DNA of 64,000 nucleotides from a virus, in IMG/VR virus record IMGVR_UViG_3300045988_115635, positions 32,001 through 96,000 of that record, one strand, 5' to 3'. Shown here piece after piece: positions 5,784-59,822 of this stretch. How positions within the stretch are numbered: the first letter of the stretch is position 1; every line of letters starts with the position of its first letter. Both the position numbers and the translations under genes were made by a program. The notes below the pieces were generated by a model, which was not told the DNA's origin, did no database searches, and saw only the letters and a list, made by a program, of their open reading frames with translations.

Positions 5784-5817
5784 CTCAATTAATTTATTGA
5801 GATAGAACATTTGTTCG
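5784..5817 (-). promoter_or_regulatory. copy 1 of conserved intergenic dyad motif (CTCAAT-N6-ATTGAG + GAACA-N3-TGTTC), upstream of dnaE
   Basis: The plus strand reads ctcaattaatttattgagatagaacatttgttcg. It lies between the terminator at 5824-5860 and the dnaE RBS (GAGG) and ATG. Confidence 0.5.
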
Positions 5818-5823
5818 TTTTTA

Positions 5824-5860
5824 TAAAAAGATAGGGTAAGCACCCGTGAAGGTGCTTACC
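5824..5860 (-). terminator. rho-independent terminator after SSB gene
   Basis: A perfect 10-bp stem GGTAAGCACC/GGTGCTTACC (5835-5844 and 5851-5860) with loop CGTGAA is followed on the minus strand by a U-run (plus-strand aaaaa at 5824-5829). Confidence 0.7.
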
Positions 5861-5862
5861 GC

Positions 5863-7074
5863 TTAATCAAAAGGGATGTCGTTGTCATACACTCCACTCT
5901 GTACGTCCTGCCAAGGAATTGTATAAGGTGCTTGTGATGGAGTTGGTACGGCTGTAGGAATCTGCTGTACTTGCTGTACTGGCTGCGTAGGAACATCTTG
6001 AACAGGAGCAGCCTGAACGGGTTGAGCAGCAATAGTTTGAGCAGGTTGAGCCACTACTTGTGTAACTGGCTGTGCTACCTGCGTAACAGGTTGAGCAGGA
6101 ATGCCTTGCATAGGAACAGGCTGCTGTACTGGCTGTGCCTGCTGTACTGGCTGAACAGGTTGAGCAGCCTGCTGCAAAGCCTGCGTAGCACTCGCTACCG
6201 TTGCGTTAGGCTTATAACCTACATTTTCATTTGCATAACCCTCTACTTGAATACCGCAAGAATTATATGCCTGGGGTGTACCCATACTTGCCACTAAATC
6301 AGCAAGGGTTCTGGTCATATATGGCTTATAAGGCGTGTTATCGGTTTCGCCTGTCTGAAAATTCAAACGATTAAAACGATAGGTGCGTTCATCAATGCGC
6401 TGAATTTCCCAGTCATAGTAAGTAATGGAATCAAAATAAGTTGGGTCCTGGTCGTTGAGGATAGACCAGAAGTTACCATAAGCCTGGTTAACCATTACAA
6501 CCTCTGGGATCATTTCACCATCTTTTTCAATCATCTTGTCTTTGATTGATTTTACCTGCTTATCAGGGATACCCATGCTATTTACAGTAGTTTCATATTC
6601 AGCTTCACGAACAACAGCATAACCATACAAACGGGGTGAAGGATTATTCTTAGCCATGTACTTACGCCCGTTGTATTCTTTTTCAACTTCTTGCTCACAA
6701 AGAGGGCAAGAATAAGGCTGCTGATTCTCTGGGTCGTTCAAACACCATACAGAACGATTAGCACCCTTTACAAAGTGAAAATCACCGCCAGCAGTTCCTT
6801 CTTTTACGTCTACAATATCAGCGTCAGAAAAAGGCTTGCCACATACAGGGCAAACAATAGGCTTACCCTCTGCTATACCTTTATCCCATTCCATCTTTGG
6901 AATTTCGATATTGCAATTACAGCCTACTGATGCGTGATTTACTACTACACAATCAACCATTGGAGTTAAGAAGCGCAAAATTGCACTTTCTCCCTTTTTC
7001 AGACTAAACCAACCAAAACCACCATTGCCTTTGGTGTTCTGTTCCTTAGACAAACGCGCTGCAACATTCAACAT
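5863..7074 (-). CDS. T4 gp32-like ssDNA-binding protein with Zn-binding module, long Q/P/V-rich linker and SSB-like C-terminal tip
   Basis: N-terminal KGESAILRFLTP...VVVNH...C..C resembles the gp32 motif GQAVIRFLP...VNH plus Cys ligands. Residues ~298-375 form a (QPV)n low-complexity region. The extreme C-terminus is DNDIPFD, compared with the bacterial SSB tip DDDIPF. Confidence 0.55.
   Translation of the reverse strand: MLNVAARLSKEQNTKGNGGFGWFSLKKGESAILRFLTPMVDCVVVNHASVGCNCNIEIPKMEWDKGIAEGKPIVCPVCGKPFSDADIVDVKEGTAGGDFHFVKGANRSVWCLNDPENQQPYSCPLCEQEVEKEYNGRKYMAKNNPSPRLYGYAVVREAEYETTVNSMGIPDKQVKSIKDKMIEKDGEMIPEVVMVNQAYGNFWSILNDQDPTYFDSITYYDWEIQRIDERTYRFNRLNFQTGETDNTPYKPYMTRTLADLVASMGTPQAYNSCGIQVEGYANENVGYKPNATVASATQALQQAAQPVQPVQQAQPVQQPVPMQGIPAQPVTQVAQPVTQVVAQPAQTIAAQPVQAAPVQDVPTQPVQQVQQIPTAVPTPSQAPYTIPWQDVQSGVYDNDIPFD
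5950..6185 (-). repeat. imperfect tandem 9-12 bp coding repeats (encode QPVQ-type linker of SSB)
   Basis: A periodic ctg(c/t)tgtactggctg / caggttgagcagc pattern is visible in the sequence. It lies inside the SSB CDS; this is not a CRISPR array. Confidence 0.6.
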
Positions 7075-7760
7075 GTTTTCTCCTTACTCTTTTTAAACAA
7101 TTCCATTAGAACGTGTGCCATATAACGTTCAATCTTTACGCCTTTTTGAAATGTAAAAACGTCAAATTCAACAGCATACCCGTTTTTAACTGATTTTCGA
7201 ATACCTGCTTTAATTTCCATTTTCATATTTCTAATATAAGCAGCATCTAATAGGTATTTAACCCAAGTATCTACCTCACTTTCGTCCGTTTCCTCCATGA
7301 TAATATCTGGCTCTTTGTAATAAGCACATCGAGTAATTATTTCAGGTTCTGCCAATACAGGATTAGTTGTTTTTACTGTTTTAACAGATACAACCTCATT
7401 ATTTGTTTTAGCGTCATATTCGGCGCGTTTTACTGGGTCTGATAAAACCTCATAGGCTTTAAAAATCTCTAAGAATGTTTCTTCATTGCCGCCGTGGTCA
7501 GGGTGATTTTCTATCAAGGCTTCTTTTGCTGCCTTTTTAATCTCCTGCTCTGTAGCGTGAGAATCTACTTCTAAGATTTTGTACAGACCGTCAACATCTA
7601 AACAAGGTTTGTATAGTCGAACTATATCTTTATCAGACGAAAAGAAAACTTTTCCACCTGTCAAAGAAAGAACTAATCCATCTGGCACAGGGTTATTTGC
7701 TACCCTTTTCCTTATTGGCGTTTTCTTCTTTCTTTTCGGTTTCGACTTTAGAACAACCAT
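7068..7760 (-). CDS. DnaJ (J-domain) protein with basic N-terminus
   Basis: The J-domain YKILEVDSHATEQEIKKAAKEALIENHPDHGG...AYEVLSDPVKRAEYD includes the HPD tripeptide. The N-terminus is MVVLKSKPKRKKKTPIRKR (basic). Confidence 0.7.
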   Translation of the reverse strand: MVVLKSKPKRKKKTPIRKRVANNPVPDGLVLSLTGGKVFFSSDKDIVRLYKPCLDVDGLYKILEVDSHATEQEIKKAAKEALIENHPDHGGNEETFLEIFKAYEVLSDPVKRAEYDAKTNNEVVSVKTVKTTNPVLAEPEIITRCAYYKEPDIIMEETDESEVDTWVKYLLDAAYIRNMKMEIKAGIRKSVKNGYAVEFDVFTFQKGVKIERYMAHVLMELFKKSKEKTC

Positions 7761-7821
7761 TTTCCTTTTCTGATACTTTCAAATTTTTGGTTTTTACTGC
7801 ATTAAACTTTTTGAATGCCAT
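7693..7821 (-). CDS. possible small ORF (42 aa, Lys/Glu-rich) overlapping start of J-domain gene
   Basis: A strong Shine-Dalgarno AAAGGAGGT sits 6 nt before the ATG at 7821. The translation is MAFKKFNAVKTKNLKVSEKENGCSKVETEKKEENANKEKGSK. It is in a different frame from the 7068..7760 ORF. Confidence 0.2.
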   Translation of the reverse strand: MAFKKFNAVKTKNLKVSEKENGCSKVETEKKEENANKEKGSK

Positions 7822-7862
7822 TGTGTTACCTCCTTTAAAACAATAGTACCACTTTTCAAACA

Positions 7863-7896
7863 ATAATTAAGAAAATAATTAAGAAAATAATTTTAA
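7863..7896. repeat. tandem direct repeat, 12-mer aataattaagaa x2.8
   Basis: The unit occurs at 7863-7874 and 7875-7886, with a partial third copy. It overlaps the primase stop codon and the intergenic region upstream of the J-domain gene. Confidence 0.6.
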
Positions 7897-10897: not shown

Positions 10898-11250
10898 ATA
10901 TCTTGGTCCACCTCTTTAGTATTAGATTCAGCCAAAGCAGAATCGGTTAACCACCTGAATTTTTTAGAAAATAATTCTTTGCCAATAGGCTTGTTTTTAA
11001 ACCTGCCACCCCATTCACCATAGATGTAAGAAACAATCTTAATAGCATCATCTTTGCCGTAGTCTCTTACAAAGCATTCAACACTGCGCATTGCAGGCGC
11101 GGTAAACATGCTTTTCTGATTCATGGGATCGATACTAAAAAGAGACATATAACAATTCCTAAAATTGTCATACACCTCTTTAATATCAGGGTTATTTTCG
11201 TAAATGTTATGTGCCGTCCCTGGTATATTTTTTAAGTCCATAGTTATCAC
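10888..11250 (-). CDS. hypothetical protein
   Basis: A 120-aa ORF in the co-oriented gene string with no recognisable motif. Confidence 0.4.
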   Translation of the reverse strand: MITMDLKNIPGTAHNIYENNPDIKEVYDNFRNCYMSLFSIDPMNQKSMFTAPAMRSVECFVRDYGKDDAIKIVSYIYGEWGGRFKNKPIGKELFSKKFRWLTDSALAESNTKEVDQDIWL

Positions 11251-11704: not shown

Positions 11705-11982
11705 CGTGCCATTGCCGCCTGTTGTTTTGCTATAGCCTGATCAGAAATGTTTTGTGCAATACGATCAATTTCTTCATCACAAACTTTTTCGCAATCATGA
11801 TTCATTTGATGCATTACTTGCGTCAATAATTCCTGTGTTGGATACCCTGGTCCGATTTGAGACTTCATAGAAACATCTTTCTTAACCCATGAACCATCGG
11901 GTGCTTGAATTGAAAAGCCTACCTGAACGGTAGCGTCAACACGATAAACACCCTGTTGTTGCAATGTATCAGCGGTACTCAT
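11701..11982 (-). CDS. hypothetical protein
   Basis: A 93-aa ORF with 4-nt overlaps to both neighbours. Confidence 0.4.
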   Translation of the reverse strand: MSTADTLQQQGVYRVDATVQVGFSIQAPDGSWVKKDVSMKSQIGPGYPTQELLTQVMHQMNHDCEKVCDEEIDRIAQNISDQAIAKQQAAMAR

Positions 11983-13035: not shown

Positions 13036-13103
13036 TGTAAGCCACCTTTCATCTCCTTGCTTTTGATAATTTAATGATAGCTTAGTGCGCTAAAAGTGTA
13101 AAG

Positions 13104-13125
13104 AAATAATTGAGATAATTATTTA
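13104..13125 (-). promoter_or_regulatory. degenerate copy of intergenic motif (aaataattgagataattattta)
   Basis: It shares the core AATAATTGAGATA with the five full copies. It lies upstream of gene 12451..13035. Confidence 0.3.
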
Positions 13126-13136
13126 AATAATTTTAT

Positions 13137-15327: not shown

Positions 15328-15366
15328 CTCAATAAATTTATTGAGATAGAACAAATGTACGTGTTC
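15328..15366 (-). promoter_or_regulatory. copy 2 of conserved intergenic dyad motif, upstream of SNF2 helicase
   Basis: The plus strand reads ctcaataaatttattgagatagaacaaatgtacgtgttc. Downstream on the minus strand lies TGGTATAGT, an extended -10-like element. Confidence 0.5.
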
Positions 15367-15381
15367 AATTATTTTATTGAC

Positions 15382-15411: not shown

Positions 15412-15474
15412 CCCTATCAGCGCACCCACATCATTAGAGCAAGGAGATGATGAGTGAATACATACATTATAACA

Positions 15475-17352
15475 TTAGTAATAGCTATACATATAGTTAA
15501 TTGTCTTAGATGAATTACCCCCAACAGGTGATTTGTAATTGATAACGATTTGACCATTTGATAAATCGACCGTGCTAGGGAAAGTAATTGATATATCTCT
15601 ATCAATAGCAGTTGTAATACCCTGCTGCGCAACATCAGAACCAGGGAAATAACCATTTACGGTAACGCTGTTAATAAATACAGATGGTGCTACCGAACTG
15701 TCATAACTTGATTCACCTTCATAGAATACATAAGCGTCAATATCTACTGTTCGAGATTGCAAGCCGATAACATTTAACTGATCTTCAATTCTATTTCCAT
15801 CTGGTCCAACGTAATAAACATCAGAATACGATGGAATAGCCGTGAATTGAACTTCATCTTCTACGGTAGTAGAAGCAGAAATAACGCCTGTGTTGTTATC
15901 AGTTGTTTCTGTGCCCTTCCAATGGATAAGCAAAGATTTAACATCGCCTAAAGCTTCAAAGTCAGTTAACGACCATTCTGGCGTTTGCAAGTATGCACTC
16001 ATATAAGGGTCGTCTAGCTTCTTAATGTCACCTGTCGACAAACTAAAATGAGGGTTAAGTTTGATATAAGCAGATTCGAAAAATACCGATGCTCCAAATA
16101 CCTTGTTTGATGAATACATTTCCGCGCCGTCAGAACTACCCCCAACATCAGAATAGTAAAAGTAACCAGCATCAATAGCAGTTACAGCAGCAAGGCTACT
16201 TGTGATATTAAGTGTCGCTTGTTGCTGATTTACCTTAACGGTCAAAACACCATTACCAGTAGCTTTGTAATCTATTGAGCAGGTTTGACCAACAGTCATT
16301 TCAAATGCCGTTGTATTACTAATGGTCCATTCTGCGTCCATCGAGTTACCACTACGGGTATCATAGTTAATATCACCAATAGTAAAGGTAGCGTAAAACT
16401 CATTGGTATAACCTACATAATCGCTTGCGCCTAAGCGGTTAATTTTTAAATCTTCAATGTATGGGTCTAAACACATACCAGAACTATCAATAGCAGAAAC
16501 GGTATACGTTTTTGAAGAATCATAATTATCTAACTGATAAGAGGTAAGGCGTGTCTTAGCAATCATTACCCCATCTTCATAGATGTAATAAACGAATACG
16601 CCATTACCGCCTGTTGCTTCTGTCCAAGTAGCATAACCAACAATAGAAGCACTAAAGTCACTTTCGCCATCTTCTGTATTCCATGTCAGATCATCAGGTG
16701 TACCAATCTGAAAATCAGGTTTAGGGACAATAGCAAAAGCTTGTAACCATTCCTGGGGGTTGTTTGATAATACTCTAGCTTTAAGGGTATTAGTCTGCCT
16801 TGGTAGCGTCATTCTTGTATAGGTCTTATTTGGTAAGTCATACCACTGATACCACTTATTACCACCATCGGGGCTAAACTCCCAAAGAAGGTTTGAGTAT
16901 CTAAAGCGTGCATTATCGAACCACGCTTCGCCTTCCCCATCATCGGAATATAGATTAAACGATAAACCTACACTGTCTGTAGTGTCGTCATTCTTACCCC
17001 AGCTACGCCCCTTTTCAACCGATTCAGGGTACTTGTTATAGCTTTGCCTTACGTGGTATTCAGGACCAGTAGAACCCATCTCATCAAGTACCGCGAACAT
17101 ATTAGCCCAAGTGGTAGCTCTAGGGTCGGTTGTAGTAGCAGGTACAGATGTTCCTTTACCTGCTCGGTCGAAAAATCTTTTTATTTCGTTAACAGTAATG
17201 CTTTTGCCAATTCCGTTTTCGATTGAAGGGTCAAAGATATTGTAGGTATATTCTCCTAATTCCCTAGCACCATATCTAACCATTCTCACAGAACCCTGGG
17301 CGGATTTACCGCCTTCAAAACAATTACCGATTCTTAATGTTGGGTCTGGCAT
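15475..17352 (-). CDS. tail fiber / receptor-binding protein (putative)
   Basis: A 625-aa G/S/T/Y/N-rich, beta-rich protein. It is the last gene of the late operon, before the terminator. Confidence 0.4.
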   Translation of the reverse strand: MPDPTLRIGNCFEGGKSAQGSVRMVRYGARELGEYTYNIFDPSIENGIGKSITVNEIKRFFDRAGKGTSVPATTTDPRATTWANMFAVLDEMGSTGPEYHVRQSYNKYPESVEKGRSWGKNDDTTDSVGLSFNLYSDDGEGEAWFDNARFRYSNLLWEFSPDGGNKWYQWYDLPNKTYTRMTLPRQTNTLKARVLSNNPQEWLQAFAIVPKPDFQIGTPDDLTWNTEDGESDFSASIVGYATWTEATGGNGVFVYYIYEDGVMIAKTRLTSYQLDNYDSSKTYTVSAIDSSGMCLDPYIEDLKINRLGASDYVGYTNEFYATFTIGDINYDTRSGNSMDAEWTISNTTAFEMTVGQTCSIDYKATGNGVLTVKVNQQQATLNITSSLAAVTAIDAGYFYYSDVGGSSDGAEMYSSNKVFGASVFFESAYIKLNPHFSLSTGDIKKLDDPYMSAYLQTPEWSLTDFEALGDVKSLLIHWKGTETTDNNTGVISASTTVEDEVQFTAIPSYSDVYYVGPDGNRIEDQLNVIGLQSRTVDIDAYVFYEGESSYDSSVAPSVFINSVTVNGYFPGSDVAQQGITTAIDRDISITFPSTVDLSNGQIVINYKSPVGGNSSKTINYMYSYY

Positions 17353-25805: not shown

Positions 25806-27704
25806 CTATGATTCTCTTGATATTGAGTATAGAAATAGTTCGCTTGCTAACTCTCCAAACATACTTTCTTTTTCAATATCCATAGCCATATAAACATGTC
25901 TGTCTTTAATCATAATAGGTGCTTGTACTTCGATATTAATAGCACCGTCACTGCTCTGTGTTTGATCATAACCTGTAGCTATCGTATTGTTTAATGCTGT
26001 AGCGTACCCTGTAACACCAAGGTCAATATAAAAGGACCTATCATGATCTTCAATATAGCCTGCTTTTACCGTGAGAGAGTAAATATACTCTCGTGTCTCT
26101 GTAGCGCTTTCTCCAAATAAATCTAAAAATGGATATGTTCTAGTGCTAGTAGTATCATCGACTAAATAGCCACATCGACCAATTAAGCAAAGATAACGCC
26201 CACCATCATTTACTATATTTGTAACTGCGTTTATAGTATCGTCTGTCATATTAGACACCATAAACAAGCAAGTAGCAGCGTTACGATTATATTTTTCTTC
26301 TAGGCTCAAATCATCATCAAATAAGATGCGTAGCCTATGGCTAGTTTTATCAACAATTAGTGATGCCATTGAGTACCATGATTCCATATAGTCAATGTTT
26401 GCTTCGCTTTGCCAGTGACTAGCGTTTAATGATTGCATGGACAAAACTAAGCCATCATAGTCGCTGTTATTTACATTAGTAATTCTATATTTATCCATTG
26501 CGCGCCAAAGTTCTTCTGTAACTTCATCAGATAAAACTTTGTAATCATCATAATCACCAACAATAACTTGATTTGCTCCATATTTAGCAAGGATAGAAAA
26601 CATGCCATAAGGCTGTGTAATATCTGGTACAGATAAATCAAAAATAGGCTTACATTGCTCACCTAAGCGGCAACAGATAGCTACGCATGCTTCAAAACTT
26701 CTTAATTCACTTTGGGGGTCTGCACTGTGTTGATAAGCAATAGGCATACCAGCATAAGACCAGCCATAGCCGCCGAAACTAGAATCAATACCACTTCTTG
26801 CATACCCTAAGCCGTCAGAATCTACTAGACAATATGCATAATCAGGAACGATAGCTATTAAGCCTGTAATGCCTATCTTATCCTTGATAGCTTGACACAA
26901 TAAACGTTGTTCTTGTGATAAAAATTCACGCCATAATAAATAATTATCATCAATGCCGTTTACTATATAATTATCGCTAGGCATGATTCTATTTTGAGAA
27001 TAAAAGTTTTTATCAGCTATAGGATTTCTGTCATATGCAAGACCAGCTAGACCGATACCATCTAAGCAATAGCTTGTGATGTCGCTACCATACTTCAATC
27101 TAAGTTCATCTATTAAAGCTACGATAGCGTCTTTTGCTCCACTTGCAGACCACTTACGCGAACGTACACCTGTGTTGGTCTGTTGCTGGTAGGTAGCAAA
27201 ATCATCATTGGTTGTGTCGCTCCAAATTTCAGATGATAAAGCTACGGTAACAGCAACATTGTTGTTTCTAAATCTGTCTAATAGCTGCTTTAAAATTGGT
27301 TGACTTTTAAGACCGTAATTTTCACAAATATCACTGTCCCAGTAAACAAAACCATTATCAGCTACTGTTAATAAGACCTCATCAAAACCAGCAGATACAA
27401 TATCATCTACTACTGCTCGCTCTTTGCCTATACAACGCGATGCGTTAAGCCTGATAACGTAACGCATTACATTGATATTTCCATTTGTGACTTTATTCCA
27501 TAAACGCCACTTGTTAGAAGCTACCTTAGAGATAAGCCAAACTTCATTTACCTTTGGAGGGGTTTCCGTATTGGATAAGTCAAAATTTATAGTAAGCGTA
27601 CCTGCTTGTGTTTTGCAGGTGATGCCGTTTGAACCTACATTTACGATTTGTACGACCTGCATTTGGTCGCCGCTAAGACCTCTATCCATTGTTATTTCTC
27701 CCAA
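25806..27704 (-). CDS. tail-associated putative glycoside hydrolase-like (TIM-barrel, GHL-type) protein
   Basis: AVVDDIVSAGFDEVLLTVADNGFVYWDS is reminiscent of GH-like 10/114 family cores. The call is tentative. Confidence 0.3.
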   Translation of the reverse strand: MGEITMDRGLSGDQMQVVQIVNVGSNGITCKTQAGTLTINFDLSNTETPPKVNEVWLISKVASNKWRLWNKVTNGNINVMRYVIRLNASRCIGKERAVVDDIVSAGFDEVLLTVADNGFVYWDSDICENYGLKSQPILKQLLDRFRNNNVAVTVALSSEIWSDTTNDDFATYQQQTNTGVRSRKWSASGAKDAIVALIDELRLKYGSDITSYCLDGIGLAGLAYDRNPIADKNFYSQNRIMPSDNYIVNGIDDNYLLWREFLSQEQRLLCQAIKDKIGITGLIAIVPDYAYCLVDSDGLGYARSGIDSSFGGYGWSYAGMPIAYQHSADPQSELRSFEACVAICCRLGEQCKPIFDLSVPDITQPYGMFSILAKYGANQVIVGDYDDYKVLSDEVTEELWRAMDKYRITNVNNSDYDGLVLSMQSLNASHWQSEANIDYMESWYSMASLIVDKTSHRLRILFDDDLSLEEKYNRNAATCLFMVSNMTDDTINAVTNIVNDGGRYLCLIGRCGYLVDDTTSTRTYPFLDLFGESATETREYIYSLTVKAGYIEDHDRSFYIDLGVTGYATALNNTIATGYDQTQSSDGAINIEVQAPIMIKDRHVYMAMDIEKESMFGELASELFLYSISRES

Positions 27705-30253: not shown

Positions 30254-31015
30254 CTAGAACTGTTTCCATACGCTAATAAAATAGCACCAAGAACCTTGTG
30301 CTCTTAATTCTTGTTCGCTCCATACTCTCGTATTTTCATGTGATGCTGGGTCATTGATTCTTAAATTACCGTCAGAATCTAACCACATTAAAACTAAGTG
30401 ACCGCCGTAATAAACTGCTCCAAATTGACCAGCCACGCTACACCATACAGTGTGCCCCGCCTTAGCTTCATTTATTGCAAAATCTAGGTCCCACATTTGA
30501 TTTGAAGCCTGTAGCCCTAAAGAATTTCTAGCAAAATCAGCAAAAGCAAGCATATAGTTTAAACCGCCATAGGTACAGCTATCTCCTACAGTATCCCTTA
30601 GCCTTAAAGGTGTAAACTCTTCGCGTGTCCAATACTCAAAAGACATTGCAGCGGTAGTTAATCCGCAACCATTTGAACCTATCGTGTTGCCATGTGCGTA
30701 ACTAACGCCGCTCCATCTCTCATCACCTTGATAATATGCTGGCATGTATCTAGGGTCGTGTTGGTCGTGCCATTCTTCCATTGCCTTTTGATAGGTAGGC
30801 TCAATACATGAATAAGTATCGTTCATAAACGCTGCTAGACTATCAGCAATAGGCTCTAAAGTAGGTCTAGCTAAAGTAGCCTTTTGTTGGTCTAAAGTTA
30901 ATTTTCTATCATCGACAGATGTATTCACGATTGCCGAAAACAGAATAATAGCGGTAATAAATAAGACCAGAAATAGATAAAGAATCTTCTTTAATATGTT
31001 GATAAACTTCTTCAC
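30254..31015 (-). CDS. membrane-anchored putative cysteine peptidase (C39-like / papain-fold)
   Basis: The N-terminal TM is LYLFLVLFITAIILFSAIV. A Cys motif GSNGCGLTTAAMSF and a distal His (GGHLVLMWLDSDGN) are present. Confidence 0.4.
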   Translation of the reverse strand: MKKFINILKKILYLFLVLFITAIILFSAIVNTSVDDRKLTLDQQKATLARPTLEPIADSLAAFMNDTYSCIEPTYQKAMEEWHDQHDPRYMPAYYQGDERWSGVSYAHGNTIGSNGCGLTTAAMSFEYWTREEFTPLRLRDTVGDSCTYGGLNYMLAFADFARNSLGLQASNQMWDLDFAINEAKAGHTVWCSVAGQFGAVYYGGHLVLMWLDSDGNLRINDPASHENTRVWSEQELRAQGSWCYFISVWKQF

Positions 31016-36995: not shown

Positions 36996-37006
36996 TTATT
37001 TTTTTA
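36996..37006 (-). other. candidate programmed -1 ribosomal frameshift site (slippery A_AAA_AAA then TAA)
   Basis: The minus strand reads AGC TTA AAA AAA TAA ATA GCC TGT TGA. A -1 slip gives KKINSLLIDCED, which is in frame with ORF 36655..36987. Confidence 0.55.
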
Positions 37007-37391
37007 AGCTAGAAGCAATCTCACCAGCCGTTTTCACCATCTTGGTATATTCATCATAAATGTCTCTTACTACAGATGCGTACCAATCTTTAATTACTTG
37101 CGCCTTTTCATAAATCAAATCAACATCGGGTGATAATGCCTTTACCAAAGGCATTCCATCAACCGCTTCTATTGCAGCAGCAACAAAATACATTTGCATA
37201 GCAGCTAACTCACTTCGAGTACCTACATACTCTTTTGCTAGTTGCCCTACTCTTAATTCTTCACCTTGCGTAAGCGTCTTAATTAAGATTTTATGCCCTG
37301 CAATTTCAATAGTCCTTTGAAGCTTTCCAACGTAGAGCAGCCCTGAAAAGGGCTGCTTATACTCATCGGGAAAAACATCTTCTTTGTTCAT
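36996..37391 (-). CDS. tail assembly chaperone (G-like)
   Basis: A 131-aa protein immediately upstream of the tape measure gene. It ends ...SSLKK* at the slippery heptamer and is preceded by motif copy 3. Confidence 0.5.
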   Translation of the reverse strand: MNKEDVFPDEYKQPFSGLLYVGKLQRTIEIAGHKILIKTLTQGEELRVGQLAKEYVGTRSELAAMQMYFVAAAIEAVDGMPLVKALSPDVDLIYEKAQVIKDWYASVVRDIYDEYTKMVKTAGEIASSLKK

Positions 37392-37413: not shown

Positions 37414-37446
37414 CTCAATAAAATAATTGAGATAGAACAAATGTTC
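37414..37446 (-). promoter_or_regulatory. copy 3 of conserved intergenic dyad motif, upstream of chaperone/tape-measure genes
   Basis: The plus strand reads ctcaataaaataattgagatagaacaaatgttc. It lies about 25 nt upstream of the chaperone ATG. Confidence 0.5.
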
Positions 37447-43148: not shown

Positions 43149-43223
43149 TATGTATCTCCTTTTGTTTGGTACGTCATAAGAAAATAATAACCCAAACAGC
43201 TAATAAACGCACCTATTCGCAAC

Positions 43224-43256
43224 CTCAATAAAATAATTGAGATAGAACAAATGTTT
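43224..43256 (-). promoter_or_regulatory. copy 4 of conserved intergenic dyad motif
   Basis: The plus strand reads ctcaataaaataattgagatagaacaaatgtttg. It sits between the capsid terminator and gene 42630..43148. Confidence 0.5.
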
Positions 43257-43314: not shown

Positions 43315-44280
43315 TTAGTTACCCTGAAGATCCACACGAACAATACCGTAGGAGTTAGCAACAATAAGATTGATAAGCTCGGAATATACCCAACCAATGG
43401 TGAAGTTTTCAGCCTTTGGATTATCTACGCCGTCAAGCTGCTTCAGAATTGGCATCCAACCGATGTACTCTGGCTCTGGAATCATGTAAATCTTATCCAA
43501 AGGACAAATTACAGAAGTCATGATGGAGAACTTGCCCATCTTAGTAATAGGCTTACCGTCCATAACATCATCGAGGAATTTAACACCAGTGGTATCAATC
43601 TTCCATGTGTACAGGTCGTTAGCCGTAGCAGGATTCATGATAACTCGGTGAGATTCAAGACGATTCTGAATAGCGATCTTTTCAGCGTTATAGAAAGCCG
43701 TAGGAGAAATATCACCAGTAACGGTAGATACATGAGAGGTAAGACCAGCAGTATCAGGAGAAGATGAGGTGATCTTAGATACAGCAGCATCGAAGCAGCT
43801 AAACAGATAGCCGTCTTCCTGCTCCATAATACGCTGTTCAGCTTCGCCCTTAGCATAGTCAACCATGTTAATAGCCAACTTGTAAATATCCTCTTCAGAG
43901 ATTACAGGGAAAGCAGCAATACGAATTACATCATAGCGTACACGGTTGCCTTCATACTGCGAGATTTTAACCTCATTGTCATGCGGTTGCAGCTTATAAG
44001 CAGCACCAAACTCGGTGGTAATATCGTAGAAAAGACCTGCGCCCTGTGGTAGAGGGTCTTCCATAAGAACAGAGCGAACGATGCCTTCATAGCGCAAACG
44101 GATAATGATAGGACCTACAACGCCCTGTGCAACCTTAGTAGATGCAAGTCTAGGGTCGTGCTTATTTTCAGACAAAATACGATTCAAAGATGCCTGTCGC
44201 TTTTTAGGAGAAGATGGATTTTTACCCAACTCAGCGACAATTTCAGCAGAAGTCTTAGGCATTGCCATAGTTAAACGCAC
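43315..44280 (-). CDS. major capsid protein (putative)
   Basis: A 321-aa protein immediately after the scaffold and decoration-like genes. It is followed by a strong terminator, the typical layout of a highly expressed head gene. Confidence 0.5.
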   Translation of the reverse strand: MRLTMAMPKTSAEIVAELGKNPSSPKKRQASLNRILSENKHDPRLASTKVAQGVVGPIIIRLRYEGIVRSVLMEDPLPQGAGLFYDITTEFGAAYKLQPHDNEVKISQYEGNRVRYDVIRIAAFPVISEEDIYKLAINMVDYAKGEAEQRIMEQEDGYLFSCFDAAVSKITSSSPDTAGLTSHVSTVTGDISPTAFYNAEKIAIQNRLESHRVIMNPATANDLYTWKIDTTGVKFLDDVMDGKPITKMGKFSIMTSVICPLDKIYMIPEPEYIGWMPILKQLDGVDNPKAENFTIGWVYSELINLIVANSYGIVRVDLQGN

Positions 44281-45850: not shown

Positions 45851-45887
45851 GAATTATTTTTACATAAATTTTTTAACGCGCAACATA

Positions 45888-45926
45888 GAAAAACACACCC
45901 TGCGTTTATACAAAGGTGTGTTTTCC
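45888..45926 (-). terminator. terminator-like hairpin after 710-aa gene
   Basis: A 10-bp stem AAAACACACC/GGTGTGTTTT with a 15-nt loop. The U-rich 3' side is partly contributed by the stem itself. Confidence 0.35.
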
Positions 45927-50352: not shown

Positions 50353-50353
50353 T

Positions 50354-52624
50354 TTACAACTCCTTTAATCCACTTAATTTTAATAAGTTTGCGAGCGATG
50401 CAGACCTTACGCAAACTCTGTTTGCAGCGATTTTGTAATCAATATCTTCTGCATATCCAAATTGAGAAAGATCATCAAAATCAATCGAAGAATCTAACTC
50501 AAATGAACACTTGTAATTGGCGCGTTTTTCTTCTTCATCTTCTTTGCCTTCATTTGCATCTTCCTGAACATCTTCAATATCTTCTTCTTCAGAAAGATCA
50601 TCACGCAAATTATTATTTTCTTGCGCCTTTTCAGTATCAACATCACCAAAACCAGGGGCGTATTCTACGTATTCGCAAACATCGCAATACTGACCGTCAA
50701 AGTCTGGACTGCCACAAATAGGGCAAACTCTGTCGGTATCTTGCATATCAACTTCTTCTGGAATACGTCTCTTATTTACCATGTTATCGGCTGCTTTGTT
50801 AATTTCGTTCATGGTGTTTATGTAATTGATATTATCAGCAACTTCAGCAGCTAGTCGCTCGTCAAGATTGAGTTCGTCATAGAGAAATGATGCAAAATCT
50901 TCCCTGCCACCGTTAGACTTTAAGTAAGCTTCATTTTCTTCAAAAAGGATATAGTGTGGTCCACTAGGGACGTTAATAGTAAATGTATTATCGTTTAAAT
51001 ATCCAATAAGTTCGCAATCCTCGCCGCTTACTGAAAAATCAGAATCAACGAATGCATAGAAGCTAAAGCCAAAATCATAACCTTCATACGATGCGTTAGA
51101 GGTAAGTTCTACGTCATAACATTTCGTACCGTCATACATTTCTTGGTCGGTAACGGTATACTTTGTGTTTTGTACAAGTCCGTCAAATGAGGTTTGCAAA
51201 ATTTCATGAGGTTTAATTAGGTCTACCCATTGAGACTGTTTTTCAAGTCTCTTTGTTCTAGTCATACCTGTTGTAGCAACCTTTGAAAAATCAATTTCTA
51301 ATGCATCTTCAACGTATTCTTGCCATTCTTTATAACAATCATTTACAGCCTGTGAAACCTCTGCAAAGGTCGTGTAATCATCTAAGTCTAATTCATAGGT
51401 ATTATCTTTATAATCATTATCAGTAGAATCATGACCAGATACCCTTACTTTGCAGTAACTAGGAATATCTTCATCATAAAGAATATCGGCTTGCTCACTT
51501 TCTAAGTCGAGTTCGTCCCATTCAATGTAGAAAGTTTCCCAGCTATCAGGTGCATAACTGTAATGAATATCAGGGTTATTAGGAGCATTTGATTCTACGT
51601 AATCTCCTAATTCACCTGTCTGCTCATAAGCAGGCTTCAAGTCAGAATCATCTGGATATTGTTCATCATAAACATCTTCATTTACTATATCGAGAGGACC
51701 GTAATCTTCGTCATATTCGCATTCATCAACAACAGCAACATATTTCTTAGCAGGTGCTTTAAGCGGTCCTGCTTCGTAATAAAGTTCATCATCATGGTAA
51801 CGATCAGCGTAATTCCAAAAATCTTTGATACATTCTTTAGCTTCGTCAAGTGTTTCAAAGTAATCATCGTAGCCTTCTTGGCTAGAAGTAAAGGTTTCTT
51901 CTTCTTTTTCCGTACCGTTGTACTCAATAGTAGAAGGATAAAAGGTAACGGTAAAAACAGTATCTTGATCTTCTTGGGCGTGTTTCTTATTAGCTAACCT
52001 GGACACTTTAGCTTCTTTCTCTACAACTTTTGCGGTCGGGTCTGCTGGGTCATATACCCAAGATTCTTCGAAAAATTGTATGCCGTTGCAAATCTCGTAA
52101 GCATATTCACCATCGTATTTTTCGCTACCTTTTGTTTTGATATGGTTGCAAAAATCCGCTGGGCTTTCTGCAACATTGCCACAAACTGAACAGGTAGTGC
52201 TTTGGCAATTAAGCCCCATAGAAACAGTATCAATTTCACCACTACGGATATAGCCACAAAGTTTAGGAAACGTTTCCTCGTCCATCTCCATAAGAATTTC
52301 TATCCATTTATCGTTTGGGTCTTCTTTGTGATAGCAAGCATCAATAATAAAACCTCTAGCGCGGTCTAAATTACTGTTCTTGTGGTTTACATAAACAGGA
52401 TCGCCGATAAAGGTCTTGTAAGCAGTCTTTAATTCGTCACCTGGCAACATATCCAAGTTAAGATTAGGAACATCAGCAGTACATGCTCGCACAGATACGT
52501 AAAGAAAGCCGTTGCCCCTATCATCGTAATTAAAAGAGCCTAAAGACTTTTTAGCGGCAACTTTGCCTAAAGTCTGTTCAGAACTTACAGCTACAACTTT
52601 TGCATTGCTAACTTTAACGAACAT
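50354..52624 (-). CDS. large head-module protein with Zn-ribbons and long acidic region (possible prohead protease/internal protein; function unknown)
   Basis: A 756-aa protein containing CSVCGNV...CNH and CPICGSPDFDGQYCDVC. A D/E/Y-rich central region runs from about 300 to 450. Confidence 0.35.
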   Translation of the reverse strand: MFVKVSNAKVVAVSSEQTLGKVAAKKSLGSFNYDDRGNGFLYVSVRACTADVPNLNLDMLPGDELKTAYKTFIGDPVYVNHKNSNLDRARGFIIDACYHKEDPNDKWIEILMEMDEETFPKLCGYIRSGEIDTVSMGLNCQSTTCSVCGNVAESPADFCNHIKTKGSEKYDGEYAYEICNGIQFFEESWVYDPADPTAKVVEKEAKVSRLANKKHAQEDQDTVFTVTFYPSTIEYNGTEKEEETFTSSQEGYDDYFETLDEAKECIKDFWNYADRYHDDELYYEAGPLKAPAKKYVAVVDECEYDEDYGPLDIVNEDVYDEQYPDDSDLKPAYEQTGELGDYVESNAPNNPDIHYSYAPDSWETFYIEWDELDLESEQADILYDEDIPSYCKVRVSGHDSTDNDYKDNTYELDLDDYTTFAEVSQAVNDCYKEWQEYVEDALEIDFSKVATTGMTRTKRLEKQSQWVDLIKPHEILQTSFDGLVQNTKYTVTDQEMYDGTKCYDVELTSNASYEGYDFGFSFYAFVDSDFSVSGEDCELIGYLNDNTFTINVPSGPHYILFEENEAYLKSNGGREDFASFLYDELNLDERLAAEVADNINYINTMNEINKAADNMVNKRRIPEEVDMQDTDRVCPICGSPDFDGQYCDVCEYVEYAPGFGDVDTEKAQENNNLRDDLSEEEDIEDVQEDANEGKEDEEEKRANYKCSFELDSSIDFDDLSQFGYAEDIDYKIAANRVCVRSASLANLLKLSGLKEL

Positions 52625-53219
52625 GCCTACCTCTTTTGCTATCTCTTATTGAGATAATTGTACAAACAATTAAAGATATTTCTGTAAATATAATAAAGGT
52701 CATTTTTAAAATAAGAAACAGGGAAAGTTCTTTTGTCCCTATTAAGCCGCCGCTAATTAGCGAAATGATAGCTAATAAGATAATAGAGGTAGCAACAATA
52801 TGAAGATCATCGACTATTGAGTAACGTATGCCCATTACTAAAAGCCCTGCGAAAACAATAAAAGCAGACGGCATAACAATACTATGAGGTGTAAAAGTCA
52901 TGAAAGCACCAATCATAGACGACATAAAAACAAATACCGTCAATAGCATCATATCAACTGTTTTCCAACTTTTATTTGTTGCGCCTTTAAATAAAAGCAC
53001 GCCAGAAAAGCCGTATATAAATAAGCTAGTTAAACGTGCAAAAGGGTTGTAGTCTCCAAAAATACCAACTACACCCGATGATGATGCCATACATAGCAAA
53101 GCAGCCGAAATATAACACATTCGGTTATCATCACACTTTTTGTAGCTTATGATTGATGCGATTAAGAAAAAGGAAAAGAATACGACAAAAGACAAATATA
53201 TATAAAAATTATTATCCAT
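52614..53219 (-). CDS. integral membrane protein (about 6 TM), AT-rich gene
   Basis: Six hydrophobic segments are present. The local GC is clearly lower than in the flanking genes. It overlaps the start of the 756-aa gene by 11 nt. Confidence 0.45.
   Translation of the reverse strand: MDNNFYIYLSFVVFFSFFLIASIISYKKCDDNRMCYISAALLCMASSSGVVGIFGDYNPFARLTSLFIYGFSGVLLFKGATNKSWKTVDMMLLTVFVFMSSMIGAFMTFTPHSIVMPSAFIVFAGLLVMGIRYSIVDDLHIVATSIILLAIISLISGGLIGTKELSLFLILKMTFIIFTEISLIVCTIISIRDSKRGRHVR
52639..52656. promoter_or_regulatory. inverted repeat TATCTC-N5-GAGATA related to intergenic motif core, at 3' end of membrane-protein gene / upstream of 756-aa gene
   Basis: The plus strand reads ctatctcttattgagataa. 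It lies immediately upstream of the RBS AAAGAGGTA of gene 50354..52624. Confidence 0.3.
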
Positions 53220-53587: not shown

Positions 53588-53602
53588 TGCTTGCCTCCTC
53601 TT

Positions 53603-54589
53603 TTAATAAAGGGAGGTGTCTTCTCCCTTAAATCTGTCATGATTCCTTGCAAGATGTCCTAATGCTTCATCTTGCAAGGCTTTTTGTTCTTGCAATGAGA
53701 AAATTCTTGTCGCGCTTTTATTGTATCCATGTTTATTTTTTGTCGCTATCGACAAAGCAGTGCGATGTTCACCATCAGTAACGCACTTAATTTCATCAAA
53801 ATCAATTTCTTCTAAGTTATCGGCAATTTCTTTTTGCATGCTTTCGGGTACGCAAGTTTCAAGAAAATCTACCGCTTCAAGTCTTTCATCTTCATCTAGC
53901 GAATACAACCTTGCTACGGTCGCGTTAAATGCGAGTTCCTTAAAACAATCTGGACAAAGATCATTCATTACATCGCGTTCGCCAAACTTGCCACAGTTTG
54001 AGCAGAACCCTCTATCACTAAAAATTTGCATTGATGCCACCCTATCACCGAAAAATTCTTTACGTGCACGCGCCTTACTTTCTATAAGCGTTGCATATGC
54101 GTGACTACACATACGACCTGTCCACCCGTCTCTACTGCCAAAGCCTGGGTTTCCGTCATGGTATTTTGCCCATTCGCAATCACACAAATAGCCTTGAATC
54201 CACCCGCCGTAGTTAGGTGATTTTGTCCACCCTCTACGTGCAAGAACTACATCGTAAGGACCACCCTTAGATACAGGGAATTTATCAGCTACTTGTGCAC
54301 TCATAACAGTAGCGTCTACTTCATCGCTATCATCTCTTTGTATAACTACACCGCCCGTAGCTACAATAGCTTCTGCTTTTGCTTTTACGTCTGCCCAAGC
54401 AGCGCGTTTTTCGATTGATGATGTTTTATCAAAAGCAACATCAACAACAGACAAAGAGCACTTAGTTATACGATCATCAGGTCGATCATATAAGCATTTT
54501 CCTAGTTTTACTTTTTCAGCTTTGCCGTCATGGTCAATGGTTTGTACGCACTGACCATTTTGGCAAAACATACAGTCACAATTATTCAT
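53603..54589 (-). CDS. SWIM zinc-finger protein, translationally coupled to portal
   Basis: A CxCxnCxH motif is present: YLCDCEWAKYH...GRMCSHAYA. Additional motifs are CxxC (CSNCG) and CPDCF. Its start overlaps the portal stop by 8 nt. Confidence 0.45.
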   Translation of the reverse strand: MNNCDCMFCQNGQCVQTIDHDGKAEKVKLGKCLYDRPDDRITKCSLSVVDVAFDKTSSIEKRAAWADVKAKAEAIVATGGVVIQRDDSDEVDATVMSAQVADKFPVSKGGPYDVVLARRGWTKSPNYGGWIQGYLCDCEWAKYHDGNPGFGSRDGWTGRMCSHAYATLIESKARARKEFFGDRVASMQIFSDRGFCSNCGKFGERDVMNDLCPDCFKELAFNATVARLYSLDEDERLEAVDFLETCVPESMQKEIADNLEEIDFDEIKCVTDGEHRTALSIATKNKHGYNKSATRIFSLQEQKALQDEALGHLARNHDRFKGEDTSLY

Positions 54590-58899: not shown

Positions 58900-59365
58900 A
58901 ATTACCCTTAATTGTCAAACGATAGATACCAGAACGTGAATTAGATACTGATAGCAAAGCAGAATTTACGCCTGGTTTTTGTTTTAGTACGGTATGTTCT
59001 TTACTTTCGCCCTCTAGTGATACATTTCCGTCAATAGTGATTGAACTAACGATATACACACCAATAGGGACGTTTACAATACCGCCACCGAAAGATTCAA
59101 CGTAATCTATTGCAGATTGAATAGCCAAAGTATCATCGTTAATACCGTCTCCTTTGGCTCCAAAATCCGAAACTGACGCATAGCGCAAATCAGCATCGTA
59201 AGAAGATACGGAAATGGGGAATGATGATAAATCGGTATCTATTGCAACCTGCAAGTATTCTTCATATGAAATTACTAAAGAAGCATTTGCCGCTATAGAT
59301 TTATCACCTATCAAAATTCGATAGGGTGCTAGGTTTGTTATTTCCATAAATCTAAGCATTTGCAC
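58889..59365 (-). CDS. pectate-lyase-fold (right-handed beta-helix) N-terminal fragment protein
   Basis: The signature VSDFGAKGDGINDDTLAIQSAIDYV is present in a 158-aa ORF that ends after only a few predicted rungs. Confidence 0.45.
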   Translation of the reverse strand: MQMLRFMEITNLAPYRILIGDKSIAANASLVISYEEYLQVAIDTDLSSFPISVSSYDADLRYASVSDFGAKGDGINDDTLAIQSAIDYVESFGGGIVNVPIGVYIVSSITIDGNVSLEGESKEHTVLKQKPGVNSALLSVSNSRSGIYRLTIKGNYGD

Positions 59366-59416
59366 AACTCCTTTTCCTTTGCCTAAAATTGTAGCAATGA
59401 AAAGCGTTCAACGCAT

Positions 59417-59785
59417 TTGTTAGGAATGATAATGCTTACATTAAAGATAAAAGATATTTTTAGTAATCGAACAGAGCAGACCTACGGGTTAATGTATAAA
59501 GATGAATACGAAAAAGACTGCTGTGCTTTATTCTCTTTCAAAGAACCTAAAGTTCTTAATTTTCATACTGCTAATTGCAAATTTCCTATTTTGGTTGTTT
59601 ATTTGCGTGATGATTTGTCTATAGATTCCTGGTATTTAATGTATCCAAATGAATCAGGCTTTAAGTCTATAAAACCTTGCAAGTTTGCCGTTGAAATGGA
59701 ATTTGATAAACATAAACTCATTGAGTTAAAACAGTCAGTAATGACTAGATTTGACTTAAAAGATAAAACGATTTCTTTTTACTAA
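59417..59785 (+). CDS. hypothetical protein, only plus-strand gene; AT-rich moron candidate
   Basis: A non-overlapped 122-aa ORF (probable start at ATG 59426 or 59432, with an upstream AGGAA). Its GC is about 30 percent. It ends 3 nt before motif copy 5. Confidence 0.4.
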   Translation: MLGMIMLTLKIKDIFSNRTEQTYGLMYKDEYEKDCCALFSFKEPKVLNFHTANCKFPILVVYLRDDLSIDSWYLMYPNESGFKSIKPCKFAVEMEFDKHKLIELKQSVMTRFDLKDKTISFY

Positions 59786-59788
59786 AAT

Positions 59789-59822
59789 CTCAATAAAATA
59801 ATTGAGAACGAACATTTGTTCG
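59789..59822 (-). promoter_or_regulatory. copy 5 of conserved intergenic dyad motif
   Basis: The plus strand reads ctcaataaaataattgagaacgaacatttgttcg. It lies directly after the terminator at 59833-59864. Confidence 0.45.

Follow-up and report, generated by a model that had tools for sequence, protein, structure and literature searches.

A 33-base motif that recurs through a viral DNA stretch of 64,000 nucleotides (positions 32,001 to 96,000 of IMG/VR record IMGVR_UViG_3300045988_115635, hereafter the window) is most likely a docking site for regulatory proteins and not a promoter. Its anatomy suggests that it may well be a dispersed composite operator, that is, a protein-binding site on double-stranded DNA built from two adjacent palindromes. 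On the coding (minus) strand the order is a 12-bp box (GAACA-N2-TGTTC), 3 nt, and an 18-bp dyad (CTCAAT-W6-ATTGAG), with the centres of box and dyad 18 bp apart. The motif exceeds chance: with up to three mismatches the 33-mer is found three times, against 0.00 in 100 shuffles, and GAAC-N4-GTTC-N3-CTCAAT with up to two mismatches is found seven times, against 0.55 expected. A first-pass annotation had listed five full copies with two inverted repeats. All five are present, intergenic and on the coding strand, and both repeats exist, but the GAACA-N3-TGTTC variant it allowed is never seen, the spacing always being N2. What it missed is that the first palindrome fits the Gram-positive SOS/LexA box consensus and that the second is a family-wide element.

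Copy 1 (minus strand 5816-5784) reads GAACAAATGTTC-TAT-CTCAATAAATTAATTGAG. Its box (5805-5816) is an SOS-box-like 12-bp palindrome (CGAACAAATGTTCT with flanks), and its dyad (5784-5801) is followed after 16 nt by the start codon of dnaE (gene 2558-5767). Copy 2 (minus strand 15360-15328) reads GTACATTTGTTC-TAT-CTCAATAAATTTATTGAG, with one mismatch (GTACA) in the box (15349-15360) and a gene-proximal dyad at 15328-15345. A second, inverted dyad, GTCAATAAAATAATTGAA (15364-15381, minus strand), lies 3 nt away on the far side of the box, so the whole site is symmetric (dyad-3-box-3-dyad). Downstream, an extended -10, TGGTATAGT, stands at 15299-15291, 31 nt from the gene-proximal dyad, and the SNF2 gene starts at 15267. 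Copy 3 (minus strand 37446-37414) reads GAACATTTGTTC-TAT-CTCAATTATTTTATTGAG (box 37435-37446, dyad 37414-37431) and ends 22 nt ahead of the start of gene 36996-37391, an ortholog of the tail assembly chaperone of Eggerthella phage LE2-3. Copy 4 (minus strand 43256-43224) reads AAACATTTGTTC-TAT-CTCAATTATTTTATTGAG, its box (43245-43256) having one mismatch (AAACA). The dyad (43224-43241) comes after the major capsid gene (43315-44280) and has behind it GGTGCG (43213-43208), 18 nt and TATTAT (43189-43184). Copy 5 (minus strand 59821-59789) reads GAACAAATGTTC-GTT-CTCAATTATTTTATTGAG. With its flanks the box (59810-59821) forms a full 14-bp palindrome, CGAACAAATGTTCG, and other strains have a further dyad in tandem behind the one at 59789-59806.

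Terminator-like hairpins directly upstream of four copies were confirmed by a terminator scan on the minus strand, at 5860-5835 (with a T-run), 15415-15389, 43300-43275 and 59867-59837; the scan found none upstream of copy 3. The motif itself was rejected as an intrinsic terminator, because the scan calls the hairpins upstream and not the motif, whose stems are AT-rich (-4 to -6 kcal/mol). The statement that every full copy precedes a gene start by about 12-80 nt fails at copy 5, where the next minus-strand start is 423 nt away and the next feature is not a co-oriented gene but the convergent plus-strand DUF192 gene (59417-59785), whose 3' end adjoins the dyad (59789-59806).

In other strains of the phage, represented by human-gut metagenome contigs of 104-109 kb, the number of sites rises to nine. 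An 81-kb composite was assembled from the window and the sequence that flanks it in two other strains, and a motif search of it finds all nine sites intergenic and co-oriented with the genes. Every box at these sites (9/9) sits 3 nt from a dyad, six being exact and three carrying one mismatch (copy 2, copy 4 and one other), and each exact dyad belongs to a box-containing site. Six further one-mismatch boxes lie in ORFs, which is chance level (shuffle mean 2.7). Copy 2 and site B have the arrangement dyad-box-dyad, one strain has dyad-box-dyad-box-dyad with a 36-bp period, and dyads stand in tandem at sites C, H and I; a site with a single dyad invariably has it on the gene-facing side of the box (6/6). 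One site precedes the dnaE-recA operon, and others precede early-region genes outside the window, so the earlier proposal, in which the motif times the replication, structural and tail modules, covers too little.

The pattern of constraint was read from 43 motif instances in 15 distinct sequences (the window and 14 related contigs). The half-sites are invariant, while the adjoining intergenic DNA varies. The N2 at the centre of the box is free (A, T or G), and the centre of the dyad is restricted to A/T, as wAwwTw, with a symmetric invariant A and T. Free centres between invariant arms are a pattern typical of sites bound by dimers. This invariance also bears on a reading in which the motif has no regulatory role and is instead an extragenic palindrome of the REP/BIME kind, or a sequence that marks boundaries or serves recombination, spreading or promoting module exchange. 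Such a repeat would be extragenic, palindromic, behind terminators and at module boundaries, as the motif is; copy number does differ by strain (a 36-bp unit at site B), and at one and the same site the AT spacer is found in opposite orientations in different strains, as expected from recombination between palindromic copies. A mere repeat, however, would hardly keep its arms unchanged amid variable surroundings, the weak, AT-rich hairpins are unlike those of REPs, and the conservation between distant relatives described below argues further against it. We regard this reading as improbable.

A second possibility is that the element acts as RNA, as two small leader hairpins recognised by an RNase, an RNA-binding protein or a factor that acts in antitermination or in the control of translation. 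The 33-mer does fold as two hairpins (-6.6 to -8.6 kcal/mol, z about -3.5 against shuffles), a start codon lies within 30 nt of many copies, and one base pair has switched from A-U to G-C between lineages. This switch, however, is one lineage-wide event (14 A-U against 14 G-C) and not repeated compensation; the outer pairs break asymmetrically, being unpaired in 10/28 and 5/28 sequences, and pairing is not restored in imperfect copies. The first hairpin has only four pairs, an A/U-restricted loop has no obvious rationale in RNA, and four sites have the motif ahead of the gene's nearest promoter. No Rfam family matches the motif. A role as RNA is thus very unlikely.

The dyad has a wider distribution than the box. 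Among related phages, it is kept without the box in distant relatives of 53-63% GC, including LE2-3, as CGAT-W6-ATCG, whereas the box is limited to the lineage of the window phage and is absent from the relatives with Actinobacterial hosts (LE2-3). LE2-3 (63% GC) has 15 exact sites of this form, and further dyads occur in L011-L015, L033, L034, L035 and L036. All fit one definition, C(A/G)AT-wAwwTw-AT(T/C)G, usually followed by AG and near gene starts; in LE2-3 the AG is retained at 13/15 sites. Four sites are orthologous between LE2-3 and the window phage (before a 378-aa gene, before a 185-aa gene, after the capsid gene and before DnaE), the dyads of copies 1 and 4 corresponding to those at 100847 and 57047 of LE2-3, and the pre-DnaE dyad is also kept in L033, L034 and L036. 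Places are thus preserved across 42-67% protein identity and a 24-point difference in GC, and AT-only dyads persist within ORFs of the 63% GC genome despite rare codons; neither would be expected of a non-regulatory repeat. The dyads of the two lineages differ only at positions 4 and 15, with A/T in one and G/C in the other; the change is symmetric and holds for every copy (14 versus 14), as expected if a trans-acting dimer had changed its specificity.

The strongest competitor of the composite operator is the reading that the motif is itself a phage-specific promoter, used by a phage polymerase, or by host RNA polymerase that a phage sigma factor or activator has diverted to it, with the start at or just past the AT-rich centre of the dyad and the box in place of a -35 element. 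Much of the placement would suit this. The order terminator, motif, gene holds at 6/9 sites, every site is co-oriented with the genes with the dyad gene-proximal, and TAnnnT occurs on the coding strand in every spacer variant of the window phage. Between its terminator and its ATG, dnaE has no recognisable promoter, only copy 1 and then 16 nt; this arrangement counts against the operator, being explained more simply by a self-contained promoter. Nor would a purely symmetric operator need the gene-side polarity of the dyad (6/6) or the retained 3' AG. Some copies stand close to sigma70-like promoters, and a tandem layout with such promoters, as a class of their own, would be ordinary for phages.

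Several features are nevertheless difficult to reconcile with a promoter. Both halves are perfect palindromes, used in symmetric and tandem arrays, and the spacer is found in both orientations at one site among strains, which together speak against a single-unit phage promoter with an asymmetric core and fixed orientation. TAnnnT is missing from both strands in 9/15 LE2-3 dyads (spacers TATTTA or TAAATA). The 18 bp from box to spacer, centre to centre, misfits -35/-10 geometry, and a consensus sigma70 scan finds no such pair (16-18 nt apart) inside the 33-mer on the coding strand, which bears out the earlier remark that this is not a plain sigma70 promoter; nearby it calls just two, TTGTCA-18-TACATT, which runs across the additional dyad at copy 2, and, at copy 3, a pair on the other strand. 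In L033 a dyad arm and the ribosome-binding site share sequence 8 nt ahead of the ATG, so that a transcript starting within or after the dyad would lose that site. The conserved LE2-3 copy at 51183 lies inside the gene that it would need to drive, 12 nt past the start codon, and a search of about 91 kb turned up no gene for a sigma factor or RNA polymerase. A promoter is therefore less likely than a composite operator and, taken by itself, unlikely. The first-pass annotation had listed promoter, operator and regulator-binding site as candidates; operator or regulator site fits the anatomy, while the promoter and sigma-factor part is weak.

The position of the sites relative to sigma70-like promoters is variable. 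At some sites the motif lies about 30-34 nt upstream of a -10 hexamer and at others downstream of such a promoter: at four sites about 70 nt separate the box centre from the inferred -10 downstream of it, at two the box falls in the leader, and three have no recognisable promoter nearby. At sites B and I the motif has a good sigma70-like promoter upstream and the ribosome-binding site downstream. In LE2-3, dyads start 1-2 nt after -10-like hexamers at 30753 (TGATACAAT), 97651 (TAACAT) and 8895 (CAACAT).

A model of the composite operator can be proposed on this basis. The 18-bp dyad CTCAAT-wAwwTw-ATTGAG is the low-GC form of an element common to the whole LE2-3-like family, and a conserved regulator encoded by the phage would bind it as a dimer. 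For the box, the predicted partner is a winged-helix dimer of LexA type, which could be host LexA or a phage protein of the same specificity. Binding might control at least nine transcription units, blocking RNA polymerase where the site is in the leader or beside the ribosome-binding site (sites B, I, G and E) and modulating a promoter about 30 nt downstream where the site is upstream (sites A, D, F and H). Searches of the small proteins against Pfam, PHROGs, NCBIfam and PDB sequences returned no candidate regulator.

The box fits GAAC-N4-GTTC, the SOS box of Bacillus subtilis and Clostridium (PMC4234289), a motif that is well defined among gut Firmicutes (PMC3998124). SOS regulators of Bacteroidetes use GGA-N5-TCC or CTAA-N5-TTAG instead (PMC8565304). 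Likeness to the Gram-positive LexA ("Cheo") box lies in sequence and intergenic location, several sites having the fuller CGAACAAATGTTCG. Unlike ordinary LexA boxes, each box here comes with a phage-specific dyad, always 3 nt away, and the nine sites belong to an apparently virulent 107-kb phage, with LexA binding putative. No immunity repressor or lysogeny gene was found in about 91 of the about 107 kb, and no integrase, prophage copy, phage relative or motif in 185,579 species-representative GTDB genomes; nothing thus points to a temperate lifestyle, the usual setting of LexA control. That host LexA truly binds the nine boxes, so that the phage is wired to the SOS repressor beside its own regulator, is doubtful. 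If it did, replication, structural and early units of a large, apparently virulent gut myovirus would be under the host SOS repressor, and phage gene expression would depend on host DNA damage, with relevance to the effects of antibiotics and inflammation on gut phage activity. Since the phage recA lies in the dnaE operon behind one site, cleavage of LexA set off by phage replication could serve as a replication-coupled timer for later genes. Alternatively, hundreds of replicated sites could titrate LexA and turn on the host SOS response.

A precedent is phage GIL01, whose P3 control region combines LexA dinBoxes with a gp6 palindrome, GaCACAnnTGTGaC (PMC6182141, PMC4551915); the palindrome that accompanies LexA boxes at its late promoter is of 5-N2-5 form and is bound by a phage LexA homologue (PMC6182141). 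In both phages a LexA-type site stands beside a phage-specific palindrome, and the 5-N2-5 layout of the site of gp6, a phage-encoded homologue of the LexA DNA-binding domain, is that of the box here. GIL01, however, is a 15-kb temperate tectivirus with three promoters, whereas the window phage has at least nine dispersed sites in a myovirus-like genome, and its second palindrome is 18 bp with an AT spacer. No gp6, gp7 or LexA homologue was detected in the window phage. If a phage protein does bind the box, GIL01 gp6 would be joined by a second phage protein that copies the specificity of LexA.

Dispersed repressor sites are known from cluster A mycobacteriophages (stoperators), P1 (C1 operators) and phiC31 (conserved inverted repeats). 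In each, a short sequence is repeated many times across the genome, chiefly in narrow gaps between genes and co-oriented with transcription, and it is found both at promoters and within transcribed regions. Genome-wide spread and co-orientation are alike in the window phage, but in the known systems the phages are temperate and the repressor has been identified, stoperators and P1 operators each consist of one asymmetric site, and the element here is a two-palindrome composite. Phage-specific promoters (e.g. T7-type 23-mers, T4 late TATAAATA and SPO1 sigma-dependent promoters) share with it a conserved sequence recurring past terminators, ahead of genes and in one orientation; they are asymmetric, lie at a fixed distance from the start point, form no symmetric arrays and do not tolerate inversion of the core.

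The phage is common in human-gut metagenomes, with one of its proteins found in 102 assembly-collection blocks, often on near-complete contigs of 104-109 kb, and regulation has been described for neither the phage nor its family. The 33-mer offers a testable handle with two separable halves, the dyad shared with culturable Eggerthella phages and the box matching the SOS box. Whichever protein binds, the two lineages, set apart by the symmetric A/T versus G/C change, offer a natural experiment on how a regulator and its sites evolve together.

Two places in the window that had been taken for degenerate copies are not members. The one at 52639-52656 is a separate small palindrome, TATCTC-N6-GAGATA, at an ORF end. 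The one at 13104-13125 shares only TATCTCAATTATTT, without box and 3' arm, and lies immediately upstream of the -35 in a sigma70-like promoter, TTTACA-N17-TATCAT (13102-13074); at the corresponding place LE2-3 has TCTTAAC direct repeats.

The window contains five full copies of a 33-nt motif, at 5784-5816, 15328-15360, 37414-37446, 43224-43256 and 59789-59821 (copies 1 to 5, also called sites G, F, E, D and C). They are read on the minus strand because nearly all long ORFs of the window lie there, and all five occupy gaps between minus-strand genes. On that strand each copy consists of a 12-bp palindrome, GAACA-N2-TGTTC (the box), followed after 3 nt (TAT or GTT) by an 18-bp palindrome, CTCAAT-W6-ATTGAG (the dyad). 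The plus-strand consensus is matched at 37414 (no mismatches), 43224 (one) and 15328 (three), with zero matches expected from 100 shuffles. The pattern GAAC-N4-GTTC-N3-CTCAAT occurs seven times in the window against 0.55 expected, and these matches include all five copies on the minus strand; the full copies reported by the first-pass annotation are thus real. The terminators it placed upstream of four copies are also present, as terminator-like hairpins with a T-run ending 10-20 nt upstream. Other details need correction. The centre of the box, given earlier as two or three nucleotides, is always 2 nt, and copy 5, said to precede a gene start, points instead at the 3' end of a DUF192 gene (59417-59785) that runs towards it. 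The two supposed degenerate copies are missing the box and one arm, and match the motif at only 9-14 bases: the sequence at 13104-13125 is immediately 5' of the -35 hexamer of a sigma70-like promoter (13102-13074), and that at 52639-52656 is a separate palindrome with 6-bp arms, TATCTC-N6-GAGATA. The latter overlaps the end of the ORF at 52614-53219 and lies 14 nt before the start of the gene at 50354-52624.

The window encodes DnaE, an SNF2 helicase and a capsid protein, and has a GC content of 38-39% with a GC3 of 0.30-0.40. Among annotated phages, the one most closely related to it is Eggerthella phage LE2-3 (MW679026, 111,961 bp), which has a syntenic homologue for nearly every window gene and a DnaE with 67% identity. 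LE2-3 has 63% GC and a GC3 of 0.90, yet the two capsid proteins are 87% identical; the LE2-3 group as a whole (L001-L003 and L010-L015 compared) has 62-63% GC in full synteny with the window. Such a difference in GC, despite synteny and closely similar capsids, implies that base composition has shifted greatly inside a single phage family, presumably through a host shift. The DUF192 protein (Pfam E = 2.3e-9) is encoded by the only clear opposite-strand (plus) gene of the window, whose position and orientation are kept in LE2-3 (LE23_64). Unchanged window proteins are found on many human-gut contigs of 104-109 kb in ENA and Logan, and the window therefore belongs to a common gut phage of about 107 kb. 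These contigs supplied 20-kb stretches from several strains, extending about 8.7 kb past each window end, and one additional stretch extends 10 kb further. Megablast of a 10-kb window piece against GenBank phages gave no match, and a capsid protein search of GTDB genomes gave no relative. The capsid search of IMG/VR and JGI/ENA metagenome contigs returned mostly the LE2-3-like group (62-63% GC); two short, more distant contigs from it (56% and 51% GC) are without the dyad.

Joining the window and both flanks yields an 81-kb composite with nine sites: the five window copies and sites A, B, H and I outside it. All nine are intergenic. Six of the boxes are exact and three carry one mismatch; each lies 3 nt from a dyad, and every exact dyad in the composite is at a box-containing site. 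The six other one-mismatch boxes are all in ORFs, at shuffle level (mean 2.7), and the next 10 kb, with small early genes, have no site. At each of the six sites with just one dyad, that dyad lies on the gene-proximal side of its box. Copy 2 has a second dyad at 15364-15381, on the opposite side of the box and again 3 nt off; this dyad-box-dyad arrangement recurs at site B, and strain L021 has dyad-box-dyad-box-dyad with a 36-bp period. Strains differ at site B by one entire 36-bp box-plus-dyad unit (L021:6919-7010 vs L019:6953-7010). Additional dyads, in tandem or decayed, are present at sites C, H and I. In the 43 instances compared (15 distinct sequences), ten box-arm and twelve dyad-arm positions are essentially invariant. 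The two central box positions are A, T or G; the six central dyad positions are A/T only, the second always A and the fifth always T. Within a given site these six nucleotides may be inverted between strains (TATTTT/AAAATA or TAATTT/AAATTA; sites A, C and I, L019-L030). An exact scan for TGTTC-N3-CTCAAT-N6-ATTGAG in IMG/VR gave six matches, all by chance in unrelated contexts, and the full 22-base pattern has zero matches in GTDB genomes.

Of the motif sought in related phages, the dyad belongs to the whole family and the box does not. The 33-mer is absent from LE2-3, as is any intergenic GAAC-N4-GTTC; LE2-3 does contain 15 exact copies of CGAT-W6-ATCG, and just three more of CGAT-N6-ATCG with other spacers in a genome of 63% GC. 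Four of the 15 are orthologous to sites described here, namely those before the 378-aa gene, before the 185-aa gene, downstream of the capsid gene and before dnaE. More distant relatives were found through the protein encoded upstream of dnaE. The dyad CGATAAAATAATCGAG is retained 3' of this gene in L033 and L034 (63% GC, 50% identity) and likewise in L036 (53% GC, 42% identity); L035 (40% GC, 57% identity) has CAATAAAATAATTG three times in tandem, and L031/L032 (45% GC, 34% identity) have neither the dyad nor a comparable repeat. The two dyad forms differ solely and symmetrically at positions 4 and 15 (A/T vs G/C), and the form is uniform per lineage (14 vs 14 distinct sequences).

This evidence bears on two alternative readings. 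Were the motif an RNA element, the symmetric change might count as covariation, but it is a single event; the outermost pairs are disrupted in an asymmetric way, folding is predicted to give only weak hairpins (-4 to -8.6 kcal/mol) and Rfam has no match. Changes in copy number are what a selfish or recombination repeat would produce; the invariant arms, the orthologous conservation across deep divergence and the AT-only copies retained inside GC-rich genes do not fit such a repeat. Several LE2-3 dyads indeed lie inside ORFs, in one or two frames permitted by the sequence, and one of them, 12 nt past a start codon, is kept in five related contigs. In-ORF dyads (LE2-3 24337, 51183 and 79193; L035:1330-1404) always encode D/N-K-I-I-E, the sole stop-free frame for dyads with an AAAATA spacer; at L035:1330-1404 three tandem dyads lie within a DnaJ-domain gene. 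In three relatives a GIY-YIG homing-endonuclease gene stands between the pre-dnaE dyad and dnaE (L033:1794-2429, L034:9745-10380 and L036:1773-2429), its start codon 8 nt 3' of the dyad.

The 3' flank of the LE2-3 dyads is conserved, with A next in 15 of 15 and then G in all but two. Conservation is far lower in the mirror-image 5' flank, and the dyad site is therefore polar along the direction of transcription. A search for a second conserved element beside these dyads turned up nothing beyond this AG on the 3' side and a weak T on the 5' side. The sequence G9-10CACGG occurs three times in LE2-3 (17335, 57018 and 100874); two copies are at most 30 nt from dyads (post-capsid and pre-dnaE), and the spacing is not fixed.

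Promoter positions around the sites were read by eye. At sites A, D, F and H a terminator comes first, then the motif and, after about 30-34 nt, a -10-like hexamer. This hexamer either carries a TG extension (TGTTACAAT, TGGTATAGT) or is preceded at 18 nt by a conserved GGTGCG; in LE2-3 the layout downstream of the orthologous dyad at 27444 is the same. The centre of the dyad would then fall near -52 and that of the box near -70. At site B the motif lies downstream of a good promoter, with TATAAT 15 nt upstream, and at site I downstream of TTTACA-N17-TAGTAT or TAATAT, 30 nt upstream. No promoter was seen by eye at sites G, E and C (copies 1, 3 and 5). In LE2-3 the dyads at 30753, 97651 and 8895 begin 1-2 nt past a -10-like hexamer.

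If the motif were itself a self-contained phage promoter, its polarity, its association with terminators and the absence of another promoter ahead of dnaE would all be explained. Both halves, however, are palindromic and form arrays, a TAnnnT hexamer is missing from 9 of 15 LE2-3 dyads, and in L033 the dyad overlaps the ribosome-binding site. From the earlier list of promoter, operator or regulator-binding site, the palindromes and arrays favour the operator, whereas the spacers that invert between strains, and a copy inside the very gene whose transcription it would need to start, speak against a promoter core.

The feature is genuine, far from random and kept across the phage family. The reading favoured as a whole, to which we give an even chance, is a composite operator, because the palindromes, joint, arrays, concerted change and positions fit two dimeric proteins side by side. 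Both palindromes of the motif are perfect, their centres being either unconstrained or AT-only, and the joint between box and dyad is always 3 nt. Arrays are symmetric and tandem, the lineages differ by a concerted symmetric base change, and the positions of the motif, judged by eye, would overlap start points or leaders. From sequence, these properties look like those expected of adjacent sites for two dimeric DNA-binding proteins and unlike those of a promoter core. In the mechanism we infer, the dyad would be the target of a conserved phage regulator and the box that of a LexA-type protein, either host LexA or phage-encoded; that the box binder is host LexA itself is judged less likely than not. 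To our knowledge, the dyad fits none of the ArgR, Fur, Zur, NrdR and IHF sites. In sequence the box equals the SOS box of B. subtilis and clostridia (PMC4234289). This GAAC-N4-GTTC type is well characterised in gut Firmicutes (PMC3998124), and the SOS motifs of Bacteroidetes are different (PMC8565304). Among arrangements already described, the P3 region of phage GIL01 comes nearest: LexA boxes there act together with a 5-N2-5 palindrome, whose binder gp6 is a phage-encoded homologue of the DNA-binding domain of LexA (PMC6182141). As dispersed phage regulatory sites the copies are of a known kind; what sets them apart is their composite architecture and SOS-box half.

About 30 small proteins were scanned against Pfam, PHROGs and NCBIfam, and three were compared with PDB sequences; no repressor, sigma factor or LexA-like domain was found. 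The small proteins of the window are all acidic. P0009, a basic 140-aa protein, is encoded outside the window (L025:17846-18268), immediately 3' of the largest array (site H). A word-indexed search found no relative below 99% identity; exhaustive HMMER gave relatives at E = 6.6e-9 to 7e-4, three of which bear NUMOD1 or I-HmuI-type helix-turn-helix modules. P0009 is thus distantly related to tandem DNA-binding modules of these types, without a nuclease domain; its single-sequence AlphaFold model (pLDDT 43) is uninformative. LE2-3 has no homologue, and P0009 therefore cannot be the dyad binder of the entire family. It is confined to this phage lineage and is a candidate binder of the lineage-specific half of the site, adjacency being its sole link to the motif. 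The Cys-rich 185-aa protein encoded after site B, with LE23_55 as its LE2-3 ortholog, is a further candidate.

Other elements were noted in these phages. GGTGCG-18 nt-TAnnAT follows the dyad at two orthologous site pairs (window 43184-43213, L019:4410-4445 and LE2-3 near 27470-27500); GGTGCG is retained in both GC classes and may be an unusual -35-like element. A second regulatory class, common to low-GC and high-GC phages, has two or three direct repeats of TCTTAAyTwTT, then a TTTACA -35, 17 nt and a -10 (window 13074-13136 and 7761-7892; L025:18780-18830; LE2-3 92643-92700 and 97606-97650). The sequence TTCTATGTTGCGCG is identical in the window (45875-45890, minus strand) and LE2-3 (near 54368), immediately 3' of a terminator and upstream of the gene preceding the capsid genes. 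On the plus strand at about 15437-15500, a strong ribosome-binding site and ATG (AGCAAGGAGATGATG), kept at the same position in LE2-3, open a 17-codon ORF antisense to the end of the gene at 15475-17352. Just upstream of site A, at L019:4285-4365, a hairpin and a long T-run lie no more than about 60 nt downstream of an extended -10 (TGCTATAAT); this element may represent a small RNA or else an attenuated leader.
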